Virus record (IMG/VR): IMGVR_UViG_3300020718_000011
Location: 1 to 64,000 of that record
Direction: 5' to 3' (one strand)
From: a virus
Lineage: Duplodnaviria > Heunggongvirae > Uroviricota > Caudoviricetes
Length of the DNA: 64,000 bases
Position numbers and translations under genes: made by a program. Below, piece after piece: positions 25,160 to 63,477 of the stretch (position 1 is the stretch's first letter; each line of letters opens with the position of its first letter). The notes below the pieces were generated by a model. It saw only the letters and a program-made list of their open reading frames with translations, was not told the origin of the DNA and made no database searches.

Positions 25160-25644
25160 TTTAAATGGTCATAAATTATATTCACTATATTATTTTCTTT
25201 TATACCTTTATTTGGATACTTTGCCCAGGCTAGGTTAGTTACATCTATATATAGATCATCTACTACAACCCAATTTTCTACCTCATTATTTTGTAGCCAA
25301 TTCAAGATTTCTAATTTCCTATTTTCCTGTATAGATAAACCATTAAATCTAATTATAGGAGTAAATCCTATTGGTCTTTTAATAACCCCTTGTTTTATAT
25401 AAAAATCCCCCATATAATCCAGGGATACTCCAAATCTCCAATCAGAGGATATTACTATCTCACTATTTGTTTCTTCTAATATTCGATTTAATATTTTAAC
25501 TGCATCCTTATCAAAATCTTCAAATTTATTATGGCCTTTTAATTCGGAATATGTTGGAAGACTTGTTTTCTCCCTTATGATTTCCTTATTACTAAGACAC
25601 ATAATGCCATAATGGTCAAGAAATAAAACATTCATAATTTTCAA
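25144..25644 (-). CDS. HAD-fold-like protein (motif I degenerate)
   Basis: NVLFLDHYGIM (DxDG-like, second Asp missing) and WVVVDDLYID (HAD motif IV-like); overlaps the 3' end of the Hint-containing fibre gene. Confidence 0.35.
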   Translation of the reverse strand: MKIMNVLFLDHYGIMCLSNKEIIREKTSLPTYSELKGHNKFEDFDKDAVKILNRILEETNSEIVISSDWRFGVSLDYMGDFYIKQGVIKRPIGFTPIIRFNGLSIQENRKLEILNWLQNNEVENWVVVDDLYIDVTNLAWAKYPNKGIKENNIVNIIYDHLKCQHI

Positions 25645-27442: not shown

Positions 27443-27453
27443 TTTAACTTCTT

Positions 27454-27780
27454 TTATTTAACTACTGCCATAAAAGGGGAATTGTTTACCTTATGTCCAA
27501 TATCACCTCTAACAATATCTCCAACTTTTAATTGATAGTTAACATCGATAACAATATCACCATTAACTGTTATCTCATAATTTTTTATCATATTAACTGC
27601 ATCTTGTAATGGAATAGATATTAATTCTGCAACAAAATTAGGAAATGCTTCAATAGACAATCTCCTTGTCTTATCTGTTACCTTTGGGTAATATTTTTTA
27701 TACTTACTATTAAAATCCCTTCTTATCTGATCCTTTTGTTGGGCTTTAGATAAAATACCGGATCCATTTGAATTAGTCAT
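27454..27780 (-). CDS. small protein, possible S4-like fold
   Basis: C-terminal ITVNGDIVIDVNYQLKVGDIV resembles the S4 motif (VNG..V....L..GD.I); sits between two fibre genes. Confidence 0.3.
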   Translation of the reverse strand: MTNSNGSGILSKAQQKDQIRRDFNSKYKKYYPKVTDKTRRLSIEAFPNFVAELISIPLQDAVNMIKNYEITVNGDIVIDVNYQLKVGDIVRGDIGHKVNNSPFMAVVK

Positions 27781-33995: not shown

Positions 33996-34559
33996 ATGGC
34001 AAAGACAACAAAAAACAGGAAGGCTCAAAAAGCCGAAGTAACAAAGGTTCAGTTTGACAAGGCACTTGGGGATTACAGCACTAATCTTCAAACCCTTACG
34101 GATATAACTTCCGCACGGGATGTCAAGATAAAGGCAATCATGGATGAGTATGCAGGACAGATTGGAAATCTCCAGTCAGTACAGGGTGCTCAATTTGAAA
34201 CCCTAAAGAACTTCTGCCTGCAGAACAAGGATACTCTCTTCTCCGAAAAGAAAAGGAGTATGAAAACCGCATTACTGATTCTTGGCCTACGAAAAGATAC
34301 ACCAAGTGTTGTCTTGAAAAGCGGAAAGAGGTGGGAAGATGTTATCAAGTTGATGAAGGAAAAACTTCCCGGTTTCATTCGTACCAAGGAGGAGCCCAAC
34401 AAAGATGAGATTTTGGCGAAGAGGTCAGAAATTGGCCTGCAGTTAAATGAATGCGGAATTACAATCAAGCAGGAGGAGAAATTCTTCATTACCCCAATAG
34501 GGAAAGAAGAAACTCCAATTGTAACATTGGCCCCGGAAGCGGTAGAGGAAGTAAAATAA
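33996..34559 (+). CDS. hypothetical coiled-coil protein
   Basis: 187 aa, basic N-terminus, helical-looking. Confidence 0.45.
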   Translation: MAKTTKNRKAQKAEVTKVQFDKALGDYSTNLQTLTDITSARDVKIKAIMDEYAGQIGNLQSVQGAQFETLKNFCLQNKDTLFSEKKRSMKTALLILGLRKDTPSVVLKSGKRWEDVIKLMKEKLPGFIRTKEEPNKDEILAKRSEIGLQLNECGITIKQEEKFFITPIGKEETPIVTLAPEAVEEVK

Positions 34560-41346: not shown

Positions 41347-42314
41347 TATAGGTATAGGCGTTTAGATCGCAATGCTGTAGCTTTGCCTTATGGAGAGGCG
41401 AATTACCTTTGCAGGTGTGAATTCAATTATGTTCCACCAACGGTTTAAAACAGACGACGACTGCCTGGAATATTTATCTGGCGTTAAATGGGAGAATGGA
41501 TTTAGCTGTAAGAGATGCAACAATGATAAATATTGTGCTGGTAAAAAGCCGTTCAACAGACGATGTACCAAATGTCGGTATGAGGAAAGTCCAACATCGG
41601 GTACTATGTTTGACAAGGTTAAATTTTCAATTTTAAAGGCATTTCACATTGCTTTTAAAATAAGTACAAAGAAGAAAGGGATGTCCAGTTTAGAGTTAAG
41701 CAATGAGTTTGACCTGCGCCAAAAGACTTGTTGGGAGTTTAAATGGAAACTACAGCAGGCCATGGCAAGCAGTCTAAAATACCCTTTAACAGGAACGGTA
41801 CACGTAGATGAGTGTTACATTGGGGGCCCCGAAGAGCAAAAAAGAGGTAGAAGTAAAGGCGATAAAAAACTCATTGTTTTAGTATTAGAGATTATTGATG
41901 GTGGTGTAGGCAGAGCATATGCTGAAGTGATAGAACATTCATCGGCTAAAGAATTGGGCGCATTTTTGAGGAAATATGTATCCAAGGATGCAAAGATTAT
42001 ATCGGATGAATGGCTCGGTTATACTCCCTTAAAAACAGAATTTACGAAATTGGAGCAAGTGGCATCGGATGACGGAAAAAACTTTAAAGACATACACATT
42101 CATATAATGAATATAAAAAGCTGGTTAAGAGGTATTCACCACCATTGCAGTAAGGAACGTATTCAAGGATACCTGGATGAATATCACTTTAGATATAACA
42201 GAAGACAAAAAATGGGGGTAATCTTTGATTCCCTTATAAAACGAATGGTCAAAAATGATCCAATACGCTTGTTATCAAAGGATTGATATTGCGACCTAAG
42301 TGCCTATACCTATA
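41347..42314 (+). mobile_element. IS1595-family insertion sequence (about 970 bp)
   Basis: Single transposase ORF flanked by 13-bp terminal inverted repeats TATAGGTATAGGC (41347-41359) / GCCTATACCTATA (42302-42314), and ACTA immediately outside both ends (candidate 4-bp target duplication). Confidence 0.65.
41390..42286 (+). CDS. IS1595-family transposase
   Basis: N-terminal zinc ribbon (CKRC...CTKC) and the hallmark VDECYIGGPEE (DEtyIGG) of ISXO2-like/IS1595 DDE transposases. Confidence 0.75.
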   Translation: MERRITFAGVNSIMFHQRFKTDDDCLEYLSGVKWENGFSCKRCNNDKYCAGKKPFNRRCTKCRYEESPTSGTMFDKVKFSILKAFHIAFKISTKKKGMSSLELSNEFDLRQKTCWEFKWKLQQAMASSLKYPLTGTVHVDECYIGGPEEQKRGRSKGDKKLIVLVLEIIDGGVGRAYAEVIEHSSAKELGAFLRKYVSKDAKIISDEWLGYTPLKTEFTKLEQVASDDGKNFKDIHIHIMNIKSWLRGIHHHCSKERIQGYLDEYHFRYNRRQKMGVIFDSLIKRMVKNDPIRLLSKD

Positions 42315-43397: not shown

Positions 43398-43775
43398 ATG
43401 AGCGATCCAAAAAACAAAAGGTCCAGCATTGGTTACTCTAAAGCGGACGACAAAATTATCAAGGAGCACGTAGCTGCTAATCCTGGTAACAAACAGGCAG
43501 CATTCAAATCCGCTGCCGCTATAATTGCCCGGAAATGGACGTCGATAAGCGCCCATTACTATGCACAGTTAGTAAAAAGTAAGAAGAACAAACCAAATGC
43601 TACATCAATTCCCACCCTAACAACTACACACGAACCCCAGGTACGTGTTATCCGAAGGGCTAAAAAGGGATACCCCGAACAGGAGATTGACCTCGGTGAG
43701 GTAGCTCTTTCCCTAATAATCCCAAAACTCAGCCAAAAGGCCAAGGCATCGCTTATCCGTAAGCTCCTGGCCTAA
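43398..43775 (+). CDS. basic hypothetical protein
   Basis: 125 aa, Lys/Ala-rich; preceded by promoter 43322-43378. Confidence 0.45.
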   Translation: MSDPKNKRSSIGYSKADDKIIKEHVAANPGNKQAAFKSAAAIIARKWTSISAHYYAQLVKSKKNKPNATSIPTLTTTHEPQVRVIRRAKKGYPEQEIDLGEVALSLIIPKLSQKAKASLIRKLLA

Positions 43776-48420: not shown

Positions 48421-48480
48421 CTTAACGTTTCATTAACAATACATATTTTTTTCGTCAGAACTTTTTATGTACTTTTGTGT
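48421..48480 (+). promoter_or_regulatory. class-A phage promoter (variant)
   Basis: ttcttaacgtttcattaacaatacatatttttttcgtcagaactttttatgtacttttgtgtatat; TACTTTTG box; drives 48509. Confidence 0.45.
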
Positions 48481-50446: not shown

Positions 50447-50520
50447 CCCAGTATTCCCCAACCACATGACCCCCACCTAGTATACACACCCATCCCCCCG
50501 GGAGACCCCCTGCGTGTCTA
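50447..50520. repeat. C-tract-rich island (G-quadruplex potential on minus strand)
   Basis: cccagtattccccaaccacatgacccccacctagtatacacacccatccccccgggagaccccctgcg: six C-runs of 3-6 in an otherwise AT-rich genome. Confidence 0.5.
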
Positions 50521-50571
50521 TCTATAGTAAATAATTAAACCTCGAATTATTCTCCCCTAAATACTTAAAAC

Positions 50572-50603
50572 TTCCGAACCAAGAAATATTACTTGGTTCG
50601 GAA
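50572..50603. repeat. 12-bp perfect inverted repeat (hairpin)
   Basis: TTCCGAACCAAG-aaatatta-CTTGGTTCGGAA in the 730-bp non-coding region. Confidence 0.7.
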
Positions 50604-51074
50604 TAAATATGTGGATAAAATAACCAAAAGTGTTAGAACCTACAAAGACCGGAGTTAAGAAAAGTATATCACAATCTACAAGGATGGTAAAAATTACATA
50701 TAATGGAATTTCTATGTTAGCAGTAGCAATTAGTTTTGTTAGTGGAGCATATTATATGGAAAAATATTATCTACTACAAGATGGTAATATAGGTTTAGAG
50801 TATGGGGATTTTGATTCTATAGTTGGCATGAATCCATCCGAATTATTTAATAGTAAAATGTAATCTATTATAGATTTACCTTCATTATAATAGATAGAAA
50901 TTAATTAGGATTATCCCATAATCCCACCTCCGGTTTATGGATCCGGAAAAAGGAATCCCCTTCAATAGTTTGCGGGAAAACATTAAAGGTTTGTTAATGA
51001 CATTTGCATTCAGGTTTACAAAAAAAATGCAAACTCGCCCGAAGCACCCCCGCGGAATTTTCGGAGAACATATT

Positions 51075-51155
51075 TAACAAAGATTTAACAATGGAATTTT
51101 TTTTATTCAAGAACTATTATTATCGCGGGCGTGTGTGCGGGCTTCTTATTATTAT
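51075..51155 (+). repeat. promoter-like element with the -7 box replaced by a GC-rich block
   Basis: agatttaacaatggaatttttttattcaagaactattattatcgcgggcgtgtgtgcgggc; upstream half is class-A promoter, downstream half is a GC island related to the 56491 and 56615 blocks. Confidence 0.5.
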
Positions 51156-51177
51156 AAAAATTCAAGGAGTTTCTTAA

Positions 51178-51795
51178 CTATATAATTTTATTACTCTTTT
51201 TTAAATTATCTAATTTCCATAATGGTTGTAGATTTGTATAATGGTTTAATTTAATAACCTCTTCGAATGTTGTCGCACTATCTAATGGTATTATGTGGTC
51301 TATATGCCATTTTCCATAATTTTCTATAGTCATTCCATCTACAAATTTAGATTTAATATACTCTACGAAAAATTCAGGTGTACAACCTAATATATCAAAT
51401 GTCTTACTTTCTTTAACTAATCCTTTCCTCTTAAAAGAACCATATACTAAGTTTCTAGTATTGGCTTTAAATTTATACAATGGGTCAATTTTCATTCTGT
51501 TCTTACGGTACTCTTTCATTTCTTCCTTTACTTCAGAATATGGCTTTCTCTTTTTTGGTTTAATCTTATAGTATTCGTTTTGCTTTTTATTAAGTTCTTT
51601 TCTCTTTTCTGGTTCCTTTCTATTTTCTAGTATACTCCCTTTATTTTTTAGATAGTAACTATTAGACTCTTCCTTTATCTTATCCTCATTCTTTTTGTAA
51701 TACTCCTTTTTATATTTCCTAATTTTCTCTTTATTAAGTTCTCTATATTTTTTCTGGTACTCACTCATATTTTGAGTCTTATTGGGTTCTTTCAT
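51178..51795 (-). CDS. HNH homing endonuclease
   Basis: DPLYKF...ILGCTPE..W..DHIIPLDSA..NHYTNLQPLW..DN..KSN; KEYYKKNEDKIKEE N-terminal repeats; ATATATA box upstream. Confidence 0.8.
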   Translation of the reverse strand: MKEPNKTQNMSEYQKKYRELNKEKIRKYKKEYYKKNEDKIKEESNSYYLKNKGSILENRKEPEKRKELNKKQNEYYKIKPKKRKPYSEVKEEMKEYRKNRMKIDPLYKFKANTRNLVYGSFKRKGLVKESKTFDILGCTPEFFVEYIKSKFVDGMTIENYGKWHIDHIIPLDSATTFEEVIKLNHYTNLQPLWKLDNLKKSNKII

Positions 51796-51820
51796 GTCTA
51801 TTATATTTTATCTATATATC

Positions 51821-51830
51821 TGAGTTATTG
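51821..51830 (-). promoter_or_regulatory. class-B ATATATA box
   Basis: Minus strand reads gatatatagataaaatataatagacATG before HNH 51795. Confidence 0.3.
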
Positions 51831-51891
51831 CCTAATTTTTAGAAAACTTATTACGCATAACGAAAACGCACACAATTAAATTCCTTAACAA

Positions 51892-51950
51892 ATCTTTAAC
51901 TTAAAAAATTTTTTTATCTTGAAAACATGCTTTATATTTGCTTTATCAAT
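51892..51950 (+). promoter_or_regulatory. class-A phage promoter
   Basis: aatctttaacttaaaaaatttttttatcttgaaaacatgctttatatttgctttatca; drives 51984; this sequence block is duplicated at 56850. Confidence 0.55.
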
Positions 51951-51983
51951 TTAATTATTAACAATTAAACAAGTTTAAAAAAA

Positions 51984-52526
51984 ATGGAAAAGACAGCATC
52001 GGCCAACACGGCCACAGACACAAAAACAACCGGAGCACAGGGTGCAGAGGTTGTAGTAACAGAGCAGCCTGCTGCAAGCAGCGTTAGCATCGTTCCAACA
52101 GCGGTAGCCGTAGAGGTACCAAAAGTTCGCCTGTTCTGGCAGAAAGCGTGCGGATCTATGAAGGATTCTACCCTTACGCCAATTAAAGACGACGAAGTAT
52201 TTGTAAGGACCTCTCACCAGGTAGGCGTTATCCCTGCCGGCGCACCGGATGGCACTGCACCAGTTGCAGAGACCGTTTACAGCATGAAGCGCGGTAAAAG
52301 GATCTACTACACACCTTCTTCTTTCATTACCGATGCACAGCGTCTCGCTGCTGATACCGCGACTGACCTCAAGGTAAAAGAGAAAGAGGCAGCAGCCAAG
52401 GTAAAGGCTGATGAAAAAGCCAAGAAAGAGCAGGCGAAAAAGGATGCGGCAGCAGCCGGTCCAAAAGTAGTAGCTGGCCCAACAGTGGTAGCGGCTCCGG
52501 CAACAATTACCGAAAAATCTCTCTAA
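51984..52526 (+). CDS. Ala/Lys/Thr-rich protein, paralog A of a duplicated pair
   Basis: Core VPKVRLFWQKACGS..TLTPIKDDEVFVRT.H.VGVIPAGA..GTAPV..VYSMKRGKRIYYTPSSFITDAQR with AKVKADEKAKKEQAKKDAAAAGPKVVAG tail; GC and codon usage above background; own promoter and bidirectional terminator. Confidence 0.55.
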   Translation: MEKTASANTATDTKTTGAQGAEVVVTEQPAASSVSIVPTAVAVEVPKVRLFWQKACGSMKDSTLTPIKDDEVFVRTSHQVGVIPAGAPDGTAPVAETVYSMKRGKRIYYTPSSFITDAQRLAADTATDLKVKEKEAAAKVKADEKAKKEQAKKDAAAAGPKVVAGPTVVAAPATITEKSL

Positions 52527-52543
52527 AGGGGTACATCGGAATT

Positions 52544-52582
52544 AAAAGAAAAACATCAGCTTAGTGCTGGTGTTTTTCTTTT
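52544..52582. terminator. bidirectional intrinsic terminator between convergent genes
   Basis: aaaagaaaaacatcagc-ttagt-gctggtgtttttctttt: about 17-bp stem with A-rich 5' arm and U-rich 3' arm, between 51984-52526(+) and 52561-53394(-). Confidence 0.6.
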
Positions 52583-53394
52583 GTCCAATTTAATTTATTT
52601 CGTTTGCTTTGATTATCAGGAGCCCATAATGGCTGGAAATTTGTATAATGGTTCAATCTTATAATTTCTTTTTGGGTAGTAGCGGAACTAGATGGTATAA
52701 TATGATCAATTTGCCATAGATTTCTATTATCCCACGACATTCCTTCCCAAAATTGAGATTCTATATGAATTTTAAATTGTTCTATGGTACATCCTAATAT
52801 TTCTTGGGAACGTGAATTTTTACTAAATCCATTATTTTTTAGGGATTGCCTTATTAGGTTACTTGTCTCTTTAGAAAACTTAAATAAGGGATCTCTTTTT
52901 AATCTCTCTTTTATATAATTACCATTTCTTTTAGCGATGGCTTTTTTATTTTCTATATAATATTGTTTTTTATCAATGGAGACTTTATTCTTGTTTTTTA
53001 GATATTTCTCTTTATCCTTTTCTATCCTTTTCTCCTTATGTAATTGATATGATTTTTTGTTATTAGATAATATTTTCTCTTTATTTAATTGATAGAGCTC
53101 TCTTCTACGTGCTAATTTTTCTTCCCTATTTGCTTGATAGAGTTCTTTTTTACGAGTTAATTCCTTATCCTTATTTAGTTTATAATATTCTCTTTTATTG
53201 GAATTTATTTCATCCCTTTTTAATTGTCTATTTTCTCTCCTTCTTTTTAATTTCTCTCCCTTGTTTAATTTATAAAGCTCATTTCTATTAGATAATTTTT
53301 CCTCGTGTGTCATATAGTATTTTATATTAACTATATATTTAAGTTTCAACCGGGGTATGCTTGTGTTTATCCAATCCATCTTTGATCGATTCAT
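52561..53394 (-). CDS. HNH homing endonuclease
   Basis: DPLFKF..ILGCTIE..W..DHIIPSSSA..NHYTNFQPLW..DN..KRN; long Lys/Glu/Tyr repeat N-terminus; likely true start MTHEEK (about 53313), which is preceded by an ATATATA box. Confidence 0.8.
   Translation of the reverse strand: MNRSKMDWINTSIPRLKLKYIVNIKYYMTHEEKLSNRNELYKLNKGEKLKRRRENRQLKRDEINSNKREYYKLNKDKELTRKKELYQANREEKLARRRELYQLNKEKILSNNKKSYQLHKEKRIEKDKEKYLKNKNKVSIDKKQYYIENKKAIAKRNGNYIKERLKRDPLFKFSKETSNLIRQSLKNNGFSKNSRSQEILGCTIEQFKIHIESQFWEGMSWDNRNLWQIDHIIPSSSATTQKEIIRLNHYTNFQPLWAPDNQSKRNKLNWTKEKHQH
53329..53340 (-). promoter_or_regulatory. class-B ATATATA box
   Basis: Minus strand reads aaatatatagttaatataaaatactatATG before the probable internal start of HNH 52561-53394. 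Confidence 0.3.
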
Positions 53395-53468
53395 TGGTCG
53401 AGGGAGCGCCCCGCAATTCAGTAAGAAATTTAATAAAATCAGTAAAAGTGGAAAGATATATAGGGTAT

Positions 53469-53822
53469 ATGAAAACTATAAAAGAATTTGATAACTATAC
53501 TCCTCTTAATGAGGATGAAACTACCGGTGGCTCTTTTGACGTAGCTAGGTTTAGTATTGCTGTTAAAAGGTGTGCAGCAGCATTGGAAGAACATGATATA
53601 GGTAAATTTGTTAGTATCTACAGCAGCCAGATAAAGAGTGTAATTAATAGTCCAGAAGCTCGTCAGAGAACGGATTTAATTAAACAATTGGCAGAAAGTA
53701 TCGAGATAGCAAAGGAAGGAATGAGCCCAGAAGAAAAGAGAGAGGTATTTGTTCTTATTATGCCTAAACTAACAGAGCAAATAGATAAAGATCCTGAGTT
53801 AAGGGCTAAGTACGAAATATAG
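53469..53822 (+). CDS. hypothetical protein
   Basis: Track ORF 53361-53822 overlaps the HNH gene start; trimmed to Met MKTIKEFDNY. Confidence 0.4.
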   Translation: MKTIKEFDNYTPLNEDETTGGSFDVARFSIAVKRCAAALEEHDIGKFVSIYSSQIKSVINSPEARQRTDLIKQLAESIEIAKEGMSPEEKREVFVLIMPKLTEQIDKDPELRAKYEI

Positions 53823-53861
53823 GTTAGAGATCCCCCTGGAGGCCCCTTGTGTAAGAGAAGA

Positions 53862-54317
53862 TTAATGTATTCTTTGGAAGTCTGGTTCTGGCCAGACTTT
53901 TTTATTGTAGGCTTCCATTAGAATTTTCACTACGTGTTCAAATATAAATGGGATTTCTCCCATTTCAAAGGTTCTTATAGTAGAAGGTACCAAAGGATCT
54001 AATTCCGTTGCGTTGTATTCCTGTCCTTGTAAAACATTAAAAAACCAATTAGATTTTTCTATATCATAATATAGTATACATAAAACACCTACATCTTTAT
54101 AGATATCCTCTTCTGTGGAGTTCCCATATACATATGTGGATTGTGTCCAAAGAGAATTTGGATTAGGTAAAATATAATCAACCCTAGTTGTTATATGAAC
54201 AGCAGGCATTACCCACTTAGTCATAGCTGCTTGTGCATTCCTATAATGAGATAGCATAAAAAGAATGAGGATAATAATAAACACATTAGTCCCCCCTATG
54301 GGCCCCTTGTGTTCCAT
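53862..54317 (-). CDS. hypothetical membrane-anchored protein flanked by direct repeats
   Basis: 151 aa; N-terminal TM helix; the CDS is bracketed by near-identical 22-bp direct repeats containing GGCCCCTTGTGT. Confidence 0.45.
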   Translation of the reverse strand: MEHKGPIGGTNVFIIILILFMLSHYRNAQAAMTKWVMPAVHITTRVDYILPNPNSLWTQSTYVYGNSTEEDIYKDVGVLCILYYDIEKSNWFFNVLQGQEYNATELDPLVPSTIRTFEMGEIPFIFEHVVKILMEAYNKKVWPEPDFQRIH

Positions 54318-54580
54318 TATACCGTTACTTTAATGATGAGGATTTTATCTTTATATTTGTCCGTAGATTGCTCTAAGGTTTCGACGCGGAAGGTCTCGTT
54401 GGGCTTTGCTACGTGTTTATTAAGAAACTCTCCGACTGAGATTTTAGTTCCCTTATGTTCACCAGTAAACCCTATATCATCGAGTGCGTCTTTATGAGAT
54501 TTGATTAGTCTTAGTTGCGCCCAGTTCTCTGATTTACCCTGGACTCTTGTTACACGAAAGGTCTCGATTTTAACTGCCAT
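54317..54580 (-). CDS. hypothetical protein
   Basis: 87 aa with internal ETFRVTRVQG / ETFRVETLEQ repeat. Confidence 0.4.
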   Translation of the reverse strand: MAVKIETFRVTRVQGKSENWAQLRLIKSHKDALDDIGFTGEHKGTKISVGEFLNKHVAKPNETFRVETLEQSTDKYKDKILIIKVTV

Positions 54581-54908
54581 GGTTCGTGGTAGATTTAATT
54601 AGTTAGATAATTGTAATGGGGTTATTTCTTCTTTACGAAGTACTTATAGTATAGAACCGCACAAATGATAATTGCTACTACCATATATGCTTGAGGTTCC
54701 GTTTCTGCCTGTAGAAATAATGGACTTCGGATATGGAGAGTGGAAACTTGCATATTGGTATCGTTTTTGAGGATAAGTCAATAAAATGATATTAACAAAA
54801 TCTTAGAGCAAATTTAATGAAAAGTTAACAAATAAAAAAATCCAAAATGTTAAATTTGCGTTAAAGAATTTTAACATCTCCCGGCTTAATTCTGTATACT
54901 TATTTCCT

Positions 54909-54919
54909 GATATATAGAT
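54909..54919 (+). promoter_or_regulatory. class-B ATATATA box (T4-late-like)
   Basis: gatatatagat ends 3 nt before the ATG of GIY-YIG gene 54922. Confidence 0.3.
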
Positions 54920-54921
54920 TT

Positions 54922-55734
54922 ATGAAAGGTTATATTTATAAAATAACAAGCCCATCTGGTAAAGTTTATATAGGTCAAACTAAAAATATTTCTAATAGGA
55001 AGAATAGTTATAAAGGATTTAATACTCCTAGCACTTCTATAAAAGCTCAAATTAAATTATATAATAGTCTTAGTAAATATGGATGGGATAATCATAAATT
55101 TGAAGTTATAGATGAATGTCAATTTTGTGGTATTAATAATTGGCTATTGGATTCTTTAGAAATTCATTGGATAAATGAATATGATAGTTTTAATAATGGA
55201 TTAAACTGTACTAAAGGTGGATCTGGCCAGTGCGGACATAAACATTCAATAGAAGCTAAACTAAAAATGGGTAACTCAATGAAGGGAAGGGTTATGTCAG
55301 AGCAAACTAAACAAAAAATAAGTAATTCAAACAAAGGAATACTTATTCACACAAAAAGAAAACCTCTTTCTGATGAGACCAAACAAAGAATAAGTAATTC
55401 AAATAAAGGAAGAACTCATGCTAAATACGAGAGAACCCCTCATTCAGAGGAAACTAAACAAAAGATGAGTAATTCTCAAAAGGGTAGGGTACCATCAGAA
55501 GAAACTAAAAAGAAAATAAGTAATTCTAAAAAAGGAACGGTATGTTCAGAAGAAACTAAACAAAAGATGAGTAATTCTCAAAAGGGTAGGGTTACATCAG
55601 AAGAAACTAAACAAAAAATAAGTAGTTCACACAAAGGAAAGAAACAAATCCCGCATTCAGAAGAAACTAAAAAGAAAATAAGTAATTCTCTTAAGTCAAA
55701 GAAAACTAATTTGAATAATCTACTTCTATTCTAA
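54922..55734 (+). CDS. GIY-YIG homing endonuclease with NUMOD3-like repeats
   Basis: MKGYIYKITSPSGKVYIGQT (GIY-YIG), KYGWDNHKFEVI, NGLNCTKGG; about 7 repeated SEETKQKISNS(N/Q)KG(R) modules; ATATATA box upstream. Confidence 0.8.
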   Translation: MKGYIYKITSPSGKVYIGQTKNISNRKNSYKGFNTPSTSIKAQIKLYNSLSKYGWDNHKFEVIDECQFCGINNWLLDSLEIHWINEYDSFNNGLNCTKGGSGQCGHKHSIEAKLKMGNSMKGRVMSEQTKQKISNSNKGILIHTKRKPLSDETKQRISNSNKGRTHAKYERTPHSEETKQKMSNSQKGRVPSEETKKKISNSKKGTVCSEETKQKMSNSQKGRVTSEETKQKISSSHKGKKQIPHSEETKKKISNSLKSKKTNLNNLLLF

Positions 55735-56344
55735 AATTTGATATAGGTTGGTCTTCAATAATAAGGAGTAACTTAGATATAAGTTCTGCCCTATTTAGTG
55801 AACCTGCTAATGAGAATGTTACCTGGGAGTGAACTGGTACAGTTTCAATTGGTGGTGCCGGAGGTTGTATTGGTCCTTGGTGCTGTATAATTGGACTAAC
55901 ATCCAAGATAATAGTTTCTTGGTCTTTGGTCTTTACCTGTACTTGTTGTTTGGCTTTTGCTCTTTCATCGAGTATAGCCTGTCTTTCACGTTTCTCTTTT
56001 TCTTTGTGTTCCTTTTTGGCCTTCTTGAGTTTGTATTCCTCAGACGAATAATATGTGTAAGCCTTTTGATTAAGTTCGTAGATCGCTCCAGTTACTCTGG
56101 TAGCCAAATGAACTGCAGTTGTATTAGAAGGTTTGGAGTACTTCCAATCAAATACAAAGCCACCTAGTTTTGAGCTTTCCAATATTTCCAATACTCCCAT
56201 CTCTTCTAATACCTTAAAGAAGCGAGCATCTAATTTATGGTCTTCTATAAATGCGGTTTTTTTAATGGGAACCACCTTCTGTACCATATCCTGTAGTACA
56301 TTTAGTGCGTCTGTGTAATTTTCTATACTAAGTTGTTGTGACAT
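55706..56344 (-). CDS. hypothetical protein
   Basis: Track ORF starts at 56380; Met MSQQLSIENY chosen; Lys/Glu-rich coiled-coil middle and Pro-rich segment. Confidence 0.45.
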   Translation of the reverse strand: MSQQLSIENYTDALNVLQDMVQKVVPIKKTAFIEDHKLDARFFKVLEEMGVLEILESSKLGGFVFDWKYSKPSNTTAVHLATRVTGAIYELNQKAYTYYSSEEYKLKKAKKEHKEKEKRERQAILDERAKAKQQVQVKTKDQETIILDVSPIIQHQGPIQPPAPPIETVPVHSQVTFSLAGSLNRAELISKLLLIIEDQPISNFRIEVDYSN

Positions 56345-56443
56345 TTTTAAGAAAGAATTTAATATAACGTAAATATACATAAAATATTTTAAGGTTAAAA
56401 ATCAATAGCTGTAATATTTTGTTAAAGAAATTATTTATACACA

Positions 56444-56625
56444 TTAACAACTCCCTAACAATTTATTCAAAAACTATTGTTTATTATTCGCGCTCGTGCG
56501 CCCACCCGCGCGAGGAGAATTTCGCAGAGGCACCCCCGCGCATGATATTACAATGAGTTTAAAAGCTTTAACAACTCCCTAACAATTTATTCAAAAACTA
56601 TTGTTTATTATTCACACGAGCGTAC
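56444..56625. repeat. two 47-bp perfect direct repeats, each abutting a GC-rich quasi-palindrome
   Basis: TTAACAACTCCCTAACAATTTATTCAAAAACTATTGTTTATTATTC at 56444-56490 and 56568-56614; followed by gcgctcgtgcgcccacccgcgcg and, inverted, cacgagcgtacgcgcacgc. Confidence 0.7.
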
Positions 56626-56701
56626 GCGCACGCACTTTTTTATATTTATATCAAAAATTCAAAGAGTTTACACAAAGAGTTGGGTCTCTACTCTTTTAAT
56701 T

Positions 56702-56775
56702 TTCTTTAACATTACCTTAACAACATTTATTTTTTTATTTTGAAACGATTCTTTAAATTTGCTTCAACAATTTAA
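56702..56775 (+). promoter_or_regulatory. class-A phage promoter (upstream copy of a tandem pair)
   Basis: ttctttaacattaccttaacaacatttatttttttattttgaaacgattctttaaatttgcttcaaca; TAAATTTG box. Confidence 0.45.
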
Positions 56776-56849
56776 TTATTAACAATACAAAAAATAATTA
56801 AAATGGAGTATAAAAAAACGAAACGAAACTCTATTAAATTCATTAACAA

Positions 56850-56910
56850 ATCTTTAACTTTAAAAATTTTTTTATCTTAAAACGATTTCTTAAATTTGCT
56901 TTATCAATTT
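56850..56910 (+). promoter_or_regulatory. class-A phage promoter
   Basis: atctttaactttaaaaatttttttatcttaaaacgatttcttaaatttgctttatca; drives 56940. Confidence 0.55.
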
Positions 56911-56939
56911 AATTATTAATAATCAAAAATCAAAAAAAA

Positions 56940-57653
56940 ATGAGCAACAACAAACACAGTAAAGGACGCGGCGCAGCCGGTCACACAACAGGCAGCGAGC
57001 ACACTTCTGCTGAACACACTGACACTGCAATCGACACTGCAATCGACACTGCAGAACACACTGACACCGCAACGGAAGAAACCAAAACGGAAACTACCGA
57101 GGCCAGCGCAGAACACACCGACCCCGCAACAGAAACTGCAGAACACACAGAGCCAGCACCAGAAGTGAAAGTTACTGAAACACCTGCTGCTTCTACCCTG
57201 TCTATCGTGCCAACCGCAGTGGCCAAGGAAGTACCAAAAGTTCGTCTCTTCTGGCAGAAAGCGTGCGGATCAATAAAAGAAAGCACTCTCACCCCTATCA
57301 AGGATGATGAAGTATTCGTTCGCACTGCCCACACCGTAGGTGTCATCCCTGCAGGTGCAGCAGAAGGTACTGCACCTGTTATCGAAATCGTTTACAGCAT
57401 GAAGCGCGGTAAAAGGATCTACTACACACCTTCTTCTTTCATTACCGATGCACAGCGCGTTGCAGCCGACCTGGCCACTAATACGAAGAACGCAGAAAAG
57501 GAAACCGCAGCCAAAGTAAAGGCTGATGAAAAACTGAAAAAAGAGCAGGCGAAAAAGGACGCAGCCGCAGCCGGTCCTAAGGTAGTAGCGGGAGCAACAA
57601 TAGTTGCCGCACCAGCAGCAGCCACAGAAACCGCTACCGAAGAAGTAAAATAA
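56940..57653 (+). CDS. Ala/Lys/Thr-rich protein, paralog B
   Basis: Same conserved core and AKVKADEKLKKEQAKKDAAAAGPKVVAG tail as 51984-52526, plus N-terminal AEHTDTAIDTAIDTAEHTDTA repeats; tandem promoters upstream; terminator downstream. Confidence 0.55.
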   Translation: MSNNKHSKGRGAAGHTTGSEHTSAEHTDTAIDTAIDTAEHTDTATEETKTETTEASAEHTDPATETAEHTEPAPEVKVTETPAASTLSIVPTAVAKEVPKVRLFWQKACGSIKESTLTPIKDDEVFVRTAHTVGVIPAGAAEGTAPVIEIVYSMKRGKRIYYTPSSFITDAQRVAADLATNTKNAEKETAAKVKADEKLKKEQAKKDAAAAGPKVVAGATIVAAPAAATETATEEVK

Positions 57654-57711
57654 GAATATCCCATTTCGGGTATCATATTAAAGATGTCCGTGGCGGATTA
57701 GGTTAGAGAAC

Positions 57712-57748
57712 AAAACCCCGGCGGCGTAAGCTCGCTGGGGTTTTCTGT
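57712..57748 (+). terminator. intrinsic terminator after paralog B
   Basis: aaaaccccggcggcgtaagctcgctggggttttctgtg: stem AAAACCCC/GGGGTTTT with an extended inner stem, then a T-run; followed by the 14-bp palindrome tgtgtagctacaca. Confidence 0.6.
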
Positions 57749-57812
57749 GTAGCTACACATCTTAAAAAATCATATATTATTAAACACTGGACCGATGGGT
57801 TGTAGAGGGCGC

Positions 57813-58400
57813 CTACAAAATTTTATTACTTTTCCATATGTTATCAGAAGCCCATAATGGTTGAAAATTACTGTAATGGTTTAATTTAATTATCTCATCC
57901 TCGTTGGTTGCACTATCTATTGGTATGATATGGTCAAAATGCCATTTACCATAATTAGACCAATCCATTCCTTCCGTAAATTTATTCTCAATCCATATTT
58001 TAAATTCCTCATAAGAGCAGCCAAGTATTTGGTAAGTAGAGGATTTTTTCGTATAACCATTTCTACGAATACTTTGTGCTATGGTTCTTTTAATCTTTTG
58101 GTGTAATTTATAAAGTGGATCTACCTTCATTCTTTCTCTAAGACGTAATTTCCTTCTACTACTTCTCTCTTCTTTTGTTAGTGGTATTTTAGGTTCCTTT
58201 TTTGGAAGTTTTTCGTAGCATCTCTTTTTGGCAGCTACGCATTTCTCTTTATTGTTTTTATAATACTCTTTTTGGTATTCCTTCTTACTTTCCTTATTTC
58301 TTTCATACCATTCTGCCATTCCAGTCCTTTTGTGCATAATTTTTATTTTTATATATCTAATGTTTACGTCTCGAAAACCAGGAATTCTGTGTTTATACAC
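57813..58400 (-). CDS. HNH homing endonuclease
   Basis: DPLYKL..ILGCSYEEFKIW..DHIIPIDSA..NHYSNFQPLW..DN..KSN; true start probably an internal Met (MHKRTG/MAEWYER), which is preceded by an ATATATA box. Confidence 0.75.
   Translation of the reverse strand: MYKHRIPGFRDVNIRYIKIKIMHKRTGMAEWYERNKESKKEYQKEYYKNNKEKCVAAKKRCYEKLPKKEPKIPLTKEERSSRRKLRLRERMKVDPLYKLHQKIKRTIAQSIRRNGYTKKSSTYQILGCSYEEFKIWIENKFTEGMDWSNYGKWHFDHIIPIDSATNEDEIIKLNHYSNFQPLWASDNIWKSNKIL
58349..58360 (-). promoter_or_regulatory. class-B ATATATA box
   Basis: Minus strand reads agatatataaaaataaaaattATG before the internal start of HNH 57813-58400. Confidence 0.3.
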
Positions 58401-58403
58401 ATT

Positions 58404-58461
58404 CTTTAACGTTATCTTAACAAATAGTATTTCACAATACAGAAACGATTTGTTATATTTG
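58404..58461 (+). promoter_or_regulatory. class-A phage promoter with no downstream protein gene
   Basis: ttctttaacgttatcttaacaaatagtatttcacaatacagaaacgatttgttatatttg; TATATTTG; about 190 nt later an intrinsic terminator, no substantial ORF. Confidence 0.45.
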
Positions 58462-58464
58462 CTT

Positions 58465-58661
58465 TTTAATAATAATTATTTAAGCGTACCTAAATTGTTT
58501 GACTATGATAAGGAATAAAGGTTCTCCATAAGTAGTAACTTATTTATTATATTATATTTAGATTATGTCCGAAGACCGAATAAGTCCAGAGTAGGAAAAG
58601 ATTAATTTAGTTTGAGAATGGCAGGATAGAATTAGTTACTATTCTGCCATTTTTGTTTTTT
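58465..58661 (+). ncRNA. candidate about 190-nt non-coding transcript (promoter to terminator, no ORF)
   Basis: Class-A promoter 58404-58461 followed by only tiny ORFs (under 12 codons) and the strong terminator at 58617-58661. Confidence 0.3.
58617..58661 (+). terminator. plus-strand intrinsic terminator
   Basis: tggcaggatag-aattagtta-ctattctgcca: 11-bp stem (one G.U), then TTTTTGTTTTTT; overlaps the 3' end of minus-strand GIY-YIG gene. Confidence 0.6.
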
Positions 58662-59330
58662 AGAGTGAGCTATCTTTAATGAATTACTCATCTTTTGTTT
58701 GGCTTCAGGAGTATTAAATTTTTCCTTCATCATAAGTTTTAATTTTAACTTATGCTCATCAGATAATGGTTTTCTTTTAGCCCTATTATTACCTTCCCTA
58801 ATTTTTTGTTTAGTCTCTTCAGATATAGGATTTCTAGTTTTACCCTTTAATGAGATGGATATTTTCTTCTTAGTTTCATCCGTAACAAATTTACGTTTAT
58901 CTATTTTTGGTTGATCTATTTTAGCCTTAGCTATTTTTGGTTTACTATCTCTATCTTTTATTAATCCCAATAAATTTCTATTTTTATTTCCTTTTAATGA
59001 ATTGGATATTTTTATTTTCATCTCTTCGGATATACTAGTAGTTCCACCACCTCCTTCCGTACAATTTAATCCATCCTTAAATGAGTTAAATTTAGAAATC
59101 CAGTATATCTCTCTTTCAAAAAGTATAGGGTCCTTATTATTATCCAATGTGAGTTCTTCTATTACTTCTTTAGTATGATTCTCCCATCCATATTTATTTA
59201 CGGACCAATATAATTTATGTTGTTTCCTATCAACTCCATATTTATATCTTTCGTTTATACTATTTTTAGTTGTACACCCTATATAAATACGTCCGGTTGG
59301 GCTAGTAATTTTATAGATAAGTCCTTTCAT
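58632..59330 (-). CDS. GIY-YIG homing endonuclease with NUMOD3-like repeats
   Basis: MKGLIYKITSPTGRIYIGCT, KYGWENHTKEVIEEL, DGLNCTEGGGG; repeated SEEMKIKISNSLKG / TDETKKKISISLKG / SEETKQKIREGN modules. Confidence 0.8.
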   Translation of the reverse strand: MKGLIYKITSPTGRIYIGCTTKNSINERYKYGVDRKQHKLYWSVNKYGWENHTKEVIEELTLDNNKDPILFEREIYWISKFNSFKDGLNCTEGGGGTTSISEEMKIKISNSLKGNKNRNLLGLIKDRDSKPKIAKAKIDQPKIDKRKFVTDETKKKISISLKGKTRNPISEETKQKIREGNNRAKRKPLSDEHKLKLKLMMKEKFNTPEAKQKMSNSLKIAHSKKQKWQNSN

Positions 59331-59332
59331 GT

Positions 59333-59345
59333 TACTATATATTGC
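59333..59345 (-). promoter_or_regulatory. class-B ATATATA box
   Basis: Minus strand reads caatatatagtaacATG before GIY-YIG 59330. Confidence 0.3.
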
Positions 59346-59470
59346 TCTTACTTATACATCATTGCCTGGGTGTTAAGTAGATAACAATTTTAGCAGAGTT
59401 TTTCATTTTAGTTCCAGCTATTAATACATATTTGTTTTTCTTATATTACTCAACAAAATGCCCTATAATA

Positions 59471-59520
59471 ATCACTTTGGTATATCACTTTGGTCGATTT
59501 TAAGGCATATTTAAAGCGAC
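59471..59520. repeat. intergenic element copy 3
   Basis: tcactttggtatatcactttggtcgattttaaggcatatttaaagcgaccag; arms tttggtcg/cgaccag. Confidence 0.55.
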
Positions 59521-59620
59521 CAGAAGTAATTATAATATCATCAATAATGCCCCCGGGGTGGTGCTGAAATTTTGACACCAAAATAAAGACCTTCTGTGGT
59601 CAGGTAAAAATACTTTATAA

Positions 59621-59680
59621 TTTCTTTAACGATGGTAATTTTTTTATTTGATAACTATTTATTACATTTGTCTTATAATT
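59621..59680 (+). promoter_or_regulatory. class-A phage promoter
   Basis: ttctttaacgatggtaatttttttatttgataactatttattacatttgtcttata; drives 59687. Confidence 0.6.
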
Positions 59681-59686
59681 TTTTAT

Positions 59687-60031
59687 ATGAAACTTTCAAA
59701 GATAGTAGACCACATACAAACGATGCCACAGGGACTTAATGCCGAGGCACGTGATAAACATTGGTCCAAGCTAAAATTAACCGAAAACGAGATGCTATTA
59801 GCAGAGCGTTACTATAATGTAGAATGCTATGTTAGCTTACCAGATTGGGGAAGGTTTTGGTTAATGTGGGATATGTCTAACGGTCACAAGGGAGGTAAAG
59901 GTTATATGTGGGTGTTCCGTACTAAAAAGGAAGCTCTTGACCATAAGAGAGACCAGAAAAAAAGAGGTGGTGCTTCTTTAAGTTTACCACAAAAGGTGGA
60001 AATACCAAACCGTAAGAATATTTACAATTAA
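59687..60031 (+). CDS. hypothetical protein
   Basis: Track ORF begins with a TTG inside promoter 59621-59680; ATG Met MKLSKIVDH chosen. Confidence 0.45.
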   Translation: MKLSKIVDHIQTMPQGLNAEARDKHWSKLKLTENEMLLAERYYNVECYVSLPDWGRFWLMWDMSNGHKGGKGYMWVFRTKKEALDHKRDQKKRGGASLSLPQKVEIPNRKNIYN

Positions 60032-61424: not shown

Positions 61425-61745
61425 ATGCCAGACCAGGAACAAAAATTAACGGACGACAAAATCCTCAACATCAAGAGCTATACCGAAAGGAGTTTTCTTG
61501 TTTGGGGTAAGGAAGCAACCATGTTACACAAGACCATGTTAATGGATCATGGTGGACAATATGGTAAGTTCTGGAAACAACAGAAACTCCAGGACAGAGG
61601 ACTTACACACGAGATACCTGATGACCGCAAGGAGAACAAAGGTGAAAACCTGAAAGGGTATATGTTCCCTGCCACCAAAAGGAGTGCGTTGATAACTAAC
61701 CTCATTATGATGGACATCAATTATACCGACTGGGATGCCCGTTAA
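61425..61745 (+). CDS. hypothetical protein
   Basis: 106-aa ORF. Confidence 0.45.
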   Translation: MPDQEQKLTDDKILNIKSYTERSFLVWGKEATMLHKTMLMDHGGQYGKFWKQQKLQDRGLTHEIPDDRKENKGENLKGYMFPATKRSALITNLIMMDINYTDWDAR

Positions 61746-63162: not shown

Positions 63163-63477
63163 ATGTCAGTAAGAATTCGATCCACCTGCGATAAGCATGC
63201 AGGTCGCGCACTGGGTATCTCCGATGAACGTATCCAACAATTTGAAGAGGTAATTCAAAACATCCTCCAAAAGAACGAGAGGATTTGTTACACCAGAATA
63301 GGTGAGATCGTATCCCAACAACTCGACCTGAACGAGAAGGAGCTATTCTTCGTTGGTATGATGATTGGTGGTCTCGCCCAGTTCAACATGATAGTAGAAG
63401 GTGCAATACGTGCCAGCGAGATGATGAACATCGACGATTCTCCTGTACCTGTTGTAAAACAAATGGCTTACGCATGA
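63163..63477 (+). CDS. hypothetical protein
   Basis: 104 aa after promoter 63095-63150. Confidence 0.45.
   Translation: MSVRIRSTCDKHAGRALGISDERIQQFEEVIQNILQKNERICYTRIGEIVSQQLDLNEKELFFVGMMIGGLAQFNMIVEGAIRASEMMNIDDSPVPVVKQMAYA

Follow-up and report, generated by a model that had tools for sequence, protein, structure and literature searches.

Small DNA-associated proteins have been described in several forms. Among them are the archaeal chromatin proteins Sul7d (Sac7d/Sso7d) and Cren7; the tails of histone H1, Hc1, mycobacterial HupB, and AlgP, which are strongly basic and largely disordered; and the internal head proteins IPI-III of phage T4, a paralogue trio comparable to the one discussed below. 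Phage T4 also encodes MotB, an early, abundant, non-specific DNA-binding protein with predicted KOW/SH3-like and OB domains (PMC7827196). How DNA is organised, protected, and packaged in phages of 400-500 kb is largely obscure.

The stretch analysed here (the window: 64,000 nucleotides from a Caudoviricetes genome of roughly 474 kb) consists almost entirely of unannotated genes. Two of these, A and B, are surrounded by endonuclease genes (Table 1). An earlier reading of the sequence alone had called A and B copies of one gene, and their products indeed share 125 of 148 aligned residues (84%; BLASTP, E = 1e-89) downstream of differing N-termini. Codon comparison over these 148 positions (dN/dS 0.10) shows both genes to be under purifying selection; synonymous sites are saturated (dS 1.33). 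GC content is 0.50-0.54 in A and B versus 0.24-0.33 in neighbouring genes, and most of this GC-richness is accounted for by amino-acid composition. The distinctive codon usage proposed earlier also stands (A plus B against the remaining 85 window ORFs: chi2 = 249, df = 36, p = 1e-33). In GC3 excess the two genes rank third and sixth among 87 ORFs, and their codons are skewed to C-ending, optimal-looking forms. Several other window genes, evidently native, show the same bias; it therefore fits high expression and not recent acquisition, and A and B are, from their codons, apparently highly expressed.

Table 1. Features of the A/B locus (window positions)
Feature	Position	Strand	Remarks
HNH1, HNH-like free-standing endonuclease gene, upstream of A	51178..51795	-	PHROG 1035, 4e-13; weak Pfam HNH, E = 0.0088; DHIIP...N...N motif
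Promoter of A and AT-rich leader to ATG	51885..51983	+	TTAAC-N6-TTAAC, T-tract, TATATTTG at 51933-51940
Paralogue A	51984..52526	+	180 aa, pI 9.1; ORF as first described
Bidirectional hairpin terminator of A	52543..52583	.	18-bp stem, A and U runs either side; dG -27 kcal/mol, z = -5.9
HNH2, HNH-like endonuclease gene	52561..53394	-	Insertion relative to L006
Conserved intervening gene	53439..53822	+	61-71% identical orthologues in L006 and L004
Conserved intervening gene, 151 aa	53862..54317	-	From comparison with relatives
Conserved intervening gene, 87 aa	54317..54580	-	Own promoter of the same class, 54809-54864, minus strand
GIY-YIG + NUMOD3 homing endonuclease gene	54922..55734	+	Pfam GIY-YIG 1.7e-6, NUMOD3 1.3e-30
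Conserved gene, 224 aa, divergent from B	55706..56380	-	Orthologues in L003, L004, L006
Two copies of 56-nt repeat	56434..56613	+	TTAAC-N7-TAAC...; GC-rich tract after each; family D13
Distal tandem promoter and leader copy of B	56706..56783	+	More diverged copy
Proximal promoter and leader of B	56843..56939	+	TAAATTTG at 56891-56898
Paralogue B	56940..57653	+	237 aa, pI 5.6; ORF as first described
Hairpin terminator of B	57712..57744	.	AAAACCCCGGCGGC...GCTCGCTGGGGTTTT; 14-bp GC-rich stem, then UUUU
HNH3, HNH-like endonuclease gene	57813..58400	-	PHROG 1035, 1.7e-12
Further promoter, same class	58406..58461	+	Antisense GIY-YIG gene between it and next plus-strand gene
Second GIY-YIG homing endonuclease gene	58632..59330	-	PHROG 314, 9e-27; 43% identical to 54922-55734

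Three related megaphage contigs, L003, L004, and L006, were compared with the window. Both L003 and L006 carry a same-strand pair 4.4-5.4 kb apart; the stretch separating its members includes counterparts to the 87-aa and 224-aa genes and no endonuclease homologues. L004 has a B-type gene only, with the same neighbour genes, in a locus cut by the contig end. (The intervening gene at 53439..53822 is listed as an ORF starting at TTG 53361; ATG 53439 is the likelier start.) A third, diverged paralogue lies about 22 kb past the window; each genome has three paralogues. Because dS is near 1.3 and the pair is conserved in relatives, the duplication is old; comparison of these loci shows it to predate the divergence of the phages.

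Nevertheless, the copies resemble one another more within genomes (pN 0.12-0.14) than between them (up to 0.29). The L003 pair has a loop deletion common to both copies. Identical runs of 69, 23, and 20 nt within the window pair, and of 44 and 35 nt within that of L003, are not conserved between genomes. Such patterns show patchy gene conversion to be keeping A and B similar. Double-strand breaks made by the flanking endonucleases may fuel this conversion.

Those endonucleases are of two kinds. HNH1, HNH2, and HNH3 are mutual paralogues (41-48% identical), and a DHIIP...N...QPLW..DN..K motif is invariant across four HNH-like copies. Two of the three ORFs match PHROG 1035, 'endonuclease VII', at about 1e-12; the Pfam HNH match, seen in one copy only, scores 16.6 bits, under the 21.4-bit cut-off, and a PDB profile search with these genes found no match. 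A GIY-YIG domain with NUMOD repeats identifies the gene at 54922-55734 as a homing endonuclease gene, and PHROG 314 the one at 58632-59330; neither had been mentioned in the sequence-only reading.

That reading did point out endonuclease genes beside the pair, and proposed a recently acquired cassette, duplicated or homed by the flanking HNH enzymes. Of the window's six HNH and GIY-YIG copies, five do cluster in an 8.2-kb region surrounding A and B (p ~2e-4, a post hoc binomial estimate), and a T5orf172-type gene lies upstream of the third paralogue too. Recent, endonuclease-driven duplication is nonetheless very improbable, given the saturated synonymous sites, the native genes with the same codon bias, the synteny of orthologues in four genomes, and the retention in L003 and L006, where endonuclease genes are lacking, of both paralogues and the genes between them. 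Endonuclease positions, moreover, vary between relatives. HNH genes are absent from L006 and L003, and L004 has one in a different spacer, which lacks an HNH gene in the window; this gene, upstream of the B orthologue, has HNH1 as a 68% identical counterpart. Compared with L006, HNH2 stands out as a clean ~830-bp insertion, and the GIY-YIG gene at 54922-55734 has no homologue in L006, L003, or L004. Since the pair occurs in relatives lacking them, the endonuclease genes are shown by this comparison to be later, variable insertions in spacers around conserved units.

A and B have in common about 105 nt of upstream DNA, made up of promoter and leader. The pairwise nucleotide alignment that the sequence-only reading proposed finds this flanking DNA ~88% identical (51875-51983 versus 56833-56939), and the tandem promoters it saw at B are present, the more diverged second copy spanning 56699-56782. 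The shared upstream DNA is thus real, but it does not mark the duplication: it is conserved equally between genomes, and so represents a conserved promoter and leader and not the trace of a duplication event. The block is kept in all seven A/B genes across the four genomes. Its putative promoter class, TTAAC-N6-TTAAC-N32-TAnnTTTG, is phage-wide, with seven occurrences versus 0.05 expected. Its elements are two TTAAC boxes near -58 and -47, a T-tract at -33, and a -7 box, TAnnTTTG, which does not vary among the seven orthologous promoters. The AT-rich leader, restricted to A and both B promoter copies, has no Shine-Dalgarno sequence in the A/B genes. At the other end, the terminators proposed after each copy are borne out by strong folding at both; each has the GC-containing hairpin and U run of an intrinsic terminator, and that of A overlaps the 3' end of HNH2. 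Each gene would thereby be a self-contained, monocistronic high-expression unit: phage-wide promoter; family-specific leader; biased codons; and strong bidirectional terminator. Two independent lines indicate that the host is probably a member of the Bacteroidota; Bacteroidota MAGs contain copies of the window's IS1595 transposase at 95-96% identity.

What do A and B encode? Protein A comprises a disordered N-terminus (residues 1-45), a five-strand beta core (46-116), a K/E/A helix (117-157), and an Ala/Val/Pro tail (net charge +1 in A, -1 in B). B has the same core, helix, and tail behind a 98-aa acidic N-terminus (net charge -13) of AEHTDTA-type repeats, encoded by DNA repeats at 56990-57165 (family D7). 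AF2 models the core with five strands and a helix at pLDDT 80-89. The core, a predicted barrel of about 70 aa, carries a net charge of +4, and an invariant basic motif, YSLKRGKRIYY, sits on its beta4-beta5 hairpin. The protein matches no family in Pfam, PHROG, or NCBIfam (the HU/IHF fold, Pfam Bac_DNA_binding, included), no PDB chain by sequence, and no BFVD model; about 30 clusters at 50% identity were found among 1.84 billion representative proteins, the longest contigs being 401-474 kb. The family is previously unannotated and, judging from these sequences, confined to a clade of phages of roughly 400-475 kb.

Two clues bear on function. The core has a weak fold match to Sac7d; hhalign against Sso7d gave a probability of 0.2%. 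In addition, a complete ORF, P0020, whose gene adjoins one for a WYL regulator, joins a GIY_YIG_2 nuclease domain (1.2e-17) and an A/B-type core (profile E = 4e-21) in one protein. (The UDG-like identity of a second fusion, P0023, was not confirmed.) The fold match and the natural nuclease fusion, both indirect evidence, make a DNA-associated role plausible. Against a DNA-binding reading stand a K/A helix that is nearly neutral and a B protein that is acidic overall. Small beta-barrels are also known as RNA- and protein-binding modules.

The best explanation, given about an even chance, is that A and B are abundant, sequence-nonspecific, nucleic-acid-binding architectural proteins: ancient paralogues, homogenised by conversion, around which endonucleases arrived later. 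Their ligand would most likely be dsDNA, and they would coat or organise the phage DNA. DNA contacts would fall to the barrel, spacing or oligomerisation to the helix, and modulation of binding to the acidic N-terminus.

An Sm/KOW/ribosomal-SH3-like barrel might instead act on mRNA or ribosomes, in a host without Shine-Dalgarno-led initiation. Five-strand barrels with basic hairpins often bind RNA, the charged helical extensions look like ribosomal-protein tails, and so weak a fold match does not separate barrel subclasses. This alternative is unlikely: the sole confirmed fusion is to a DNA nuclease, and KOW, Sm, and ribosomal families go unmatched at any threshold. The same fusion, which argues for nucleic-acid targeting, weighs against a virion surface, decoration, or structural protein in which the barrel serves protein-protein contacts, with a linker or fibre formed by the helix and Ala/Pro/Val tail. 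With a strongly basic conserved patch and no structural-module context at the loci, such a protein is a slightly poorer prospect still.

More is to be said for a packaged internal head protein, although it too is on balance improbable. Here A, B, and the third copy would be late, abundant proteins that enter the prohead, whose protease would cut off the acidic N-terminal region as a propeptide at repeated [L/I/V]-x-E sites; the basic barrel and helix would condense the 474-kb DNA in the capsid and perhaps be injected, in the manner of T4 IPI-III or phiKZ inner-body proteins. The N-terminal regions of 34 members hold 104 [LIV]xE motifs versus 52.7 +/- 6.0 in residue shuffles (two-fold, z = 8.6), an enrichment overstated because of internal repeats and because the sequences are related. 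Subfamily 1 has an invariant or almost invariant V-x-E immediately ahead of the core, and B, net -8 as a whole, becomes basic once its N-terminus is removed. Three paralogues per genome and strong expression signals also recall such proteins. However, neither the window nor the other loci inspected showed a prohead protease gene or a structural gene; the neighbours, in divergent relatives as well as here, are small genes with accessory roles or roles in nucleotide metabolism; and the host-type -7 box suits early genes better.

A bolder scheme, held at the same low level of belief, joins several of these elements into a megaphage 'chromatin' protein: a Sul7d-like DNA condenser in three paralogous forms, whose acidic, [LIV]xE-rich N-terminus a prohead protease would remove. 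Its basic barrel and helix would be packaged and injected with the genome, possibly shielding it from host nucleases, and homing breaks would drive concerted evolution.

The nucleic-acid-binding reading makes the A/B family a concrete biochemical target: conserved, multi-copy, apparently very highly expressed, and with a predicted nucleic-acid-binding-type fold in a core that is easy to express. Should the proteins not bind DNA, an ordinary duplicated phage gene remains. The promoter class can be used for mapping a regulon in these uncultured phages. The locus is also a clean natural example of short-tract gene conversion keeping ancient paralogues alike, and of homing endonuclease genes colonising the spacers around conserved duplicated units.

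How does the locus compare with known systems? Its promoters share with Bacteroidota sigma-A promoters (-33 TTTG, -7 TAnnTTTG) an AT-rich leader and the -7 box; the assignment rests on that box, which alone is not enriched in the window. They differ in an invariant ATTTTTTTA tract, T7 without a G, at the distance expected for the -33 box, which sits about 20 nt upstream, and in two extra TTAAC boxes at fixed spacing that are apparently phage-specific. As with the free-standing Seg and Mob homing endonucleases of T-even phages, HNH and GIY-YIG genes occupy intergenic spacers beside conserved genes, vary in presence among related genomes, and are associated with local gene conversion; here, unlike there, they cluster at paralogous units with a common promoter and coding sequence.

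For the proteins, the sequence-only reading had suggested histone-H1/HU-like tails. The C-terminal half is Ala/Lys-rich, as in H1, Hc1, HupB, and AlgP; its Lys/Ala segment in A, however, has 11 K/R versus 9 D/E (net +2) and is predicted to form one long helix. Sul7d and Cren7 offer the barrel comparison, A and B having no Pfam, profile, or PDB sequence similarity to Sul7d. T4 IPI-III and the phiKZ inner-body proteins are likewise several small paralogues per genome, with a possible [LIV]xE-rich propeptide and a basic mature part in common; no homology to them was found, and the genomic context of A and B is not structural. T4 MotB has no detected sequence relationship, another domain make-up, and a single copy. 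Its DNA binding was shown experimentally. MotB is nevertheless a plausible functional analogue: it too is a small beta-barrel protein that a phage encodes in a non-essential region, and homologues of known function are lacking.

The paralogous genes A and B form an ancient, syntenically conserved pair that is under purifying selection and has undergone patchy gene conversion. The encoded proteins are 84% identical over 148 gap-free residues (E = 1e-89), whereas their N-termini are of unrelated lengths, and that of B carries AEHTDTA-like repeats also visible in the DNA (56990-57165). The likeness is not confined to protein: the approximately 105 nt preceding each ATG are about 88% identical, and B has an extra, more diverged copy of this promoter/leader block 137 nt further upstream. 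A strong hairpin follows each gene. An earlier, sequence-only reading had described just these features (a gene duplicated together with its upstream DNA, differing N-termini, tandem promoters at B, and two terminators), and its observation of the pair is confirmed; its interpretation is partly supported.

Features of the A/B region, of the remainder of the window, and of related loci
Feature	Coordinates	Strand	Remarks
A	51984-52526	+	180 aa
A terminator hairpin	52543-52583		18 bp, -27 kcal/mol, z = -5.9; flanking A and U runs
B	56940-57653	+	237 aa
B terminator hairpin	57712-57744		flanking A and U runs
HNH1	51178-51795	-
HNH2	52561-53394	-
HNH3	57813-58400	-
Fourth HNH-like gene	8656-9255	-	GC 0.24
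GIY-YIG gene with NUMOD3 repeats	54922-55734
NUMOD3 array	55236-55695		8 repeat copies
GIY-YIG gene	58632-59330	-
Box overlapping a listed ATG	48422-48477
Repeats with GC-rich tracts	56434-56613
Same-class promoter	58406-58461	+
Promoter-like second copy	59608-59691
GC3-excess genes	61425-61745; 43398-43775; 63163-63477
Mu Gam-like end-protection gene	33996-34559		PHROG 491, 1.8e-27
IS1595-family transposase gene	41390-42286		Pfam DDE_Tnp_IS1595 and zinc ribbon
SPFH/Band-7 gene	12331-13188		4e-18
RtcB-like RNA ligase gene	16619-17836		1.7e-24
Three large genes	23657-29506	-
P0058, third paralogue	L013 3001-3420		outside the window
T5orf172/MUG113-type endonuclease-like gene	upstream of P0058	-
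WYL-domain gene and P0020	L011 71-1465		PADLOC WYL 5.9e-20
Small-gene array	L003 262-7369		upstream of A orthologue

Over 148 aligned codons, A and B are 75% identical in nucleotides, with pS of 0.62, an essentially saturated dS of 1.33, pN of 0.125, and dN/dS of 0.10. These values of dS and dN/dS mark both genes as old and under purifying selection; the latter, together with the conserved protein family, rules out the reading of the GC-rich segments as RNA genes. The source contig spans 473,921 bp, and related megaphage contigs hold comparable loci: L003, with two same-strand copies 5.4 kb apart; L006, with two copies 4.4 kb apart; and L004, with a B-type copy among the same neighbour genes. 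In the relatives, the window's 87-aa and 224-aa genes have homologues situated between the copies; for the 153-aa and 151-aa genes, L006 has homologues as well.

Homologues of the window's HNH and GIY-YIG genes are absent from L006 and L003. In L004, the spacer upstream of B contains an HNH gene that shares 68% identity with HNH1; the same spacer in the window has no HNH gene. In a direct alignment with L006, HNH2 stands out as some 830 bp inserted between the A terminator and a conserved motif, which in L006 lies directly 3' of the A orthologue. Since relatives keep the pair without these endonuclease genes, the duplication predates the split of the phages; the endonuclease genes, variable among relatives and in the case of HNH2 inserted, are later arrivals. 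This contradicts the proposal that endonucleases mediated the duplication or homing of the cassette.

HNH1, HNH2, and HNH3 are mutual paralogues (41-48% identical) with a common invariant block, DHIIP...N...QPLW..DN..K. The flanking HNH genes of the sequence-only reading are present as three minus-strand ORFs, two of which match PHROG 1035 (about 1e-12); because the Pfam HNH match is sub-threshold, they are termed HNH-like here. That reading lacked both GIY-YIG genes, one of which contains an unusually long NUMOD3 array with mostly 51-nt spacing (SEETKQKMSNSQKGR). A fourth HNH-like gene, 49-52% identical to HNH1-3, lies far from the cluster and has the second-lowest GC content among the window's listed ORFs. 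The window has six HNH and GIY-YIG copies, and five of them fall within 51178-59330 (post-hoc binomial estimate, about 2e-4). This clustering around A and B is real, and its best interpretation is that such genes colonised the spacers flanking a conserved, duplicated sequence.

Sequence exchange between the copies is apparent in several comparisons. Within-genome pairs have pN of 0.125, 0.140, and 0.118, most between-genome comparisons being higher (up to 0.29), and a variable-loop deletion is common to both L003 copies. The N-termini track orthology: that of B resembles L004_B and L006_B, that of A resembles L006_A and the family member P0004. On a saturated synonymous background, A and B share runs of 69, 23, and 20 nt without a single mismatch; the L003 pair shares such runs of 44 and 35 nt. 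Synonymous sites in the 69-nt run vary in other genomes, which identifies it as a conversion tract, not a site of nucleotide-level constraint, and rules out an endonuclease target or RNA structure as its cause. The promoter block tends toward within-genome likeness as the coding sequence does (identity 0.81-0.88 within genomes versus 0.63-0.80 for most cross-genome pairs). Repair of endonuclease-made breaks would be a plausible driver of the A/B conversion tracts.

A and B are indeed GC-richer than their neighbours (0.50-0.54 versus 0.24-0.33) and differ in codon usage, as had been proposed. Most of the GC-richness stems from an Ala/Gly/Pro/Thr-rich composition, given the high GC1 (0.60) and GC2 (0.50). 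GC3 averages 0.29 (sd 0.08) across the window; the values for A and B are 0.45 and 0.43, respectively. Synonymous codon usage departs strongly from that of the other window ORFs (chi2 = 249, df = 36, p = 1e-33): ATC for Ile, 65% versus 13%; CAG for Gln, 100% versus 30%; CGC for Arg, 55% versus 4%; and CTC/CTG for Leu, 90% versus 12%. By GC3 excess over amino-acid expectation, A ranks third and B sixth among 87 ORFs, in a class that includes the Gam-like gene, the 87-aa gene from the A-B interval, and others (Table). This shared codon class and the syntenic orthologues fit highly expressed native genes. Of the suggestion that the gene is "highly expressed and/or recently acquired", the first part therefore fits, and the second does not.

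The upstream DNA common to A and B is a promoter-leader block that has been conserved; it is no scar of the duplication. All seven A/B genes, from four genomes, keep TTAAC-N6-TTAAC, a ATTTTTTTA tract, TA(t/a)ATTTG, and the leader CTTTATCAATTTAATTATTAAC. The composite pattern TTAAC-N(6-8)-TAAC-N(25-40)-TAnnTTTG occurs seven times in the window (0.05 expected), always with a geometry of 56-57 nt, and was found again in relatives, which defines a phage-wide promoter class. Within the window this class is limited to 39989-63098, and the A/B leader to A and both B promoter copies. Neither TAnnTTTG by itself nor the GC-rich palindrome GGGCGCCC is enriched in the window, and Rfam yielded no credible match in 50500-59800. 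TAnnTTTG at -7 and a leader lacking a Shine-Dalgarno sequence form what we take to be a Bacteroidota promoter type, after the Bacteroides consensus. A and B are autonomous promoter-leader-gene-terminator units.

All nine TTAAC-N6/7-TTAAC boxes, seven having the full promoter geometry, lie in the window's last 24 kb, and the first 40 kb are free of them; this distribution suggests a regionally confined regulon or a temporal class. One box overlaps the listed ATG at 48467, so the true start of that gene is probably further downstream. Upstream of B, a 56-nt repeat, TTAACAACTCCCTAACAATTTATTCAAAAACTATTGTTTATTATTC, occurs in two copies, with a GC-rich tract 3' of each (CGCGCTCGTGCGCCCACCCGCGCG; CACGAGCGTACGCGCACGCAC). 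In L004 the B promoter is preceded by a like tract, CGCACGCGCACGCAC, mostly alternating purine-pyrimidine; L003 has a shorter one. Candidate explanations for the repeats are a promoter that has degenerated, a small RNA, and a relic of recombination. Elsewhere, the antisense GIY-YIG gene lies between a same-class promoter (58406-58461) and the plus-strand gene that comes next (59648). Its position may reflect an insertion that split this promoter from its gene, the promoter having been duplicated or regenerated as the promoter-like second copy.

The IS1595-family transposase gene, inside the phage, offers independent support for a Bacteroidota host. Its product shares 95-96% amino-acid identity with copies in uncultured Bacteroidetes MAGs, although these most similar contigs may be mis-binned phage DNA, and 80-83% with those of Chitinophagales/Ferruginibacter; Bacteroidota account for nearly all of the 80 best loci. 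Other recognisable window genes are few (Table). No tRNA genes were detected in the window, and of the three large minus-strand genes, two have no Pfam family and the third has a sub-threshold pentapeptide-repeat match. The L003 array comprises about 17 consecutive small genes, head to tail and alike in length (101-159 aa, mostly 135-151), and may be a tandemly amplified paralogue family.

Together, A, B, and their homologues make up a new family of proteins that is confined to megaphages. No family in Pfam, PHROG, NCBIfam, or PADLOC matched A, B, or a third paralogue. INPHARED phages yielded no match to the region, B, or the divergent member P0055 by nucleotide and tblastn searches. Member-wise Pfam at E <= 10 returned scattered noise (best, DUF7635 in 3 of 32 members, 7.5e-4). 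Foldseek against BFVD gave nothing under E = 0.5, and neither a PDB sequence profile search nor hhalign against Sso7d gave any match. Pattern scans detected no members in GTDB species representatives or IMG/VR. A word-indexed search recovered 15 family proteins, and a HMMER profile run against all 1.84 billion representatives, only 30; a second profile search brought further members, among them the third paralogue, its equivalents on the contigs of L003 and L004, and some on contigs of 401-474 kb. The "moraphage" lineage reaches 307 kbp (PMC12619734); no link to the window's phage was found.

The third, diverged paralogue, P0058 (139 aa, 35% identical), resides on the same contig about 22 kb beyond B, with its own TTAAC-N7-TTAAC boxes and terminator. 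Equivalents are P0052, on the contig holding L003, and P0060, on that holding L004. Each divergent member likewise stands alone as a monocistronic unit, behind an upstream gap of 450-900 nt and amid nucleotide-metabolism genes.

Family architecture is constant: a low-complexity acidic N-terminus; the core, with nearly invariant residues W, K, C, K, T, T ... T ... S-x-K-R-x-x-R-I-Y-Y (consensus FWHKxC..K.ST.T.hK ... VYSLKRGKRIYY); and a charged helix. AF2 predicts five strands and a helix at 117-157 (core pLDDT 80-89), and a core-only model agrees. The core has a net charge of +4. The Lys/Ala helix, previously likened to histone-H1/HU-like tails, contains 11 K/R and 9 D/E (net +2) and so is no polycationic tail of the H1 type. 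B is acidic overall because its N-terminus has a net charge of -13.

The odds are about even that A/B is an abundant architectural protein that binds nucleic acid, most likely DNA, through a small SH3/Sul7d-like barrel. An extension of this idea, in which a packaged internal protein loses its acidic N-terminus at [LIV]xE sites, seems unlikely: the motif occurs 104 times in the N-terminal regions of 34 members (alignment A6), two-fold over shuffles (52.7 +/- 6.0), but repeats and relatedness of the sequences inflate this enrichment, and the genomic context is not structural. The [LIV]-x-E units, such as repeated VVNE, VTE, and IVNE, may be sites for a prohead protease or nothing more than a repeated motif.

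The best functional clue, an indirect one, comes from P0020, a complete 294-aa ORF that fuses a GIY_YIG_2 nuclease domain (1.2e-17) to the core (profile E = 4e-21). In GIY-YIG enzymes, the appended C-terminal module normally is the DNA-binding part. P0020 starts 4 nt downstream of a WYL-domain gene on L011, a contig of 1.8 kb that belongs to the same series of samples; the two genes look like a small defence-type operon. A second fusion protein, P0023, has an extra N-terminal domain, whose apparent likeness to UDG was unconfirmed on follow-up. The family is new and uncharacterised: it resembles the abundant DNA-architectural proteins of viruses and archaea, and belongs to no known family.
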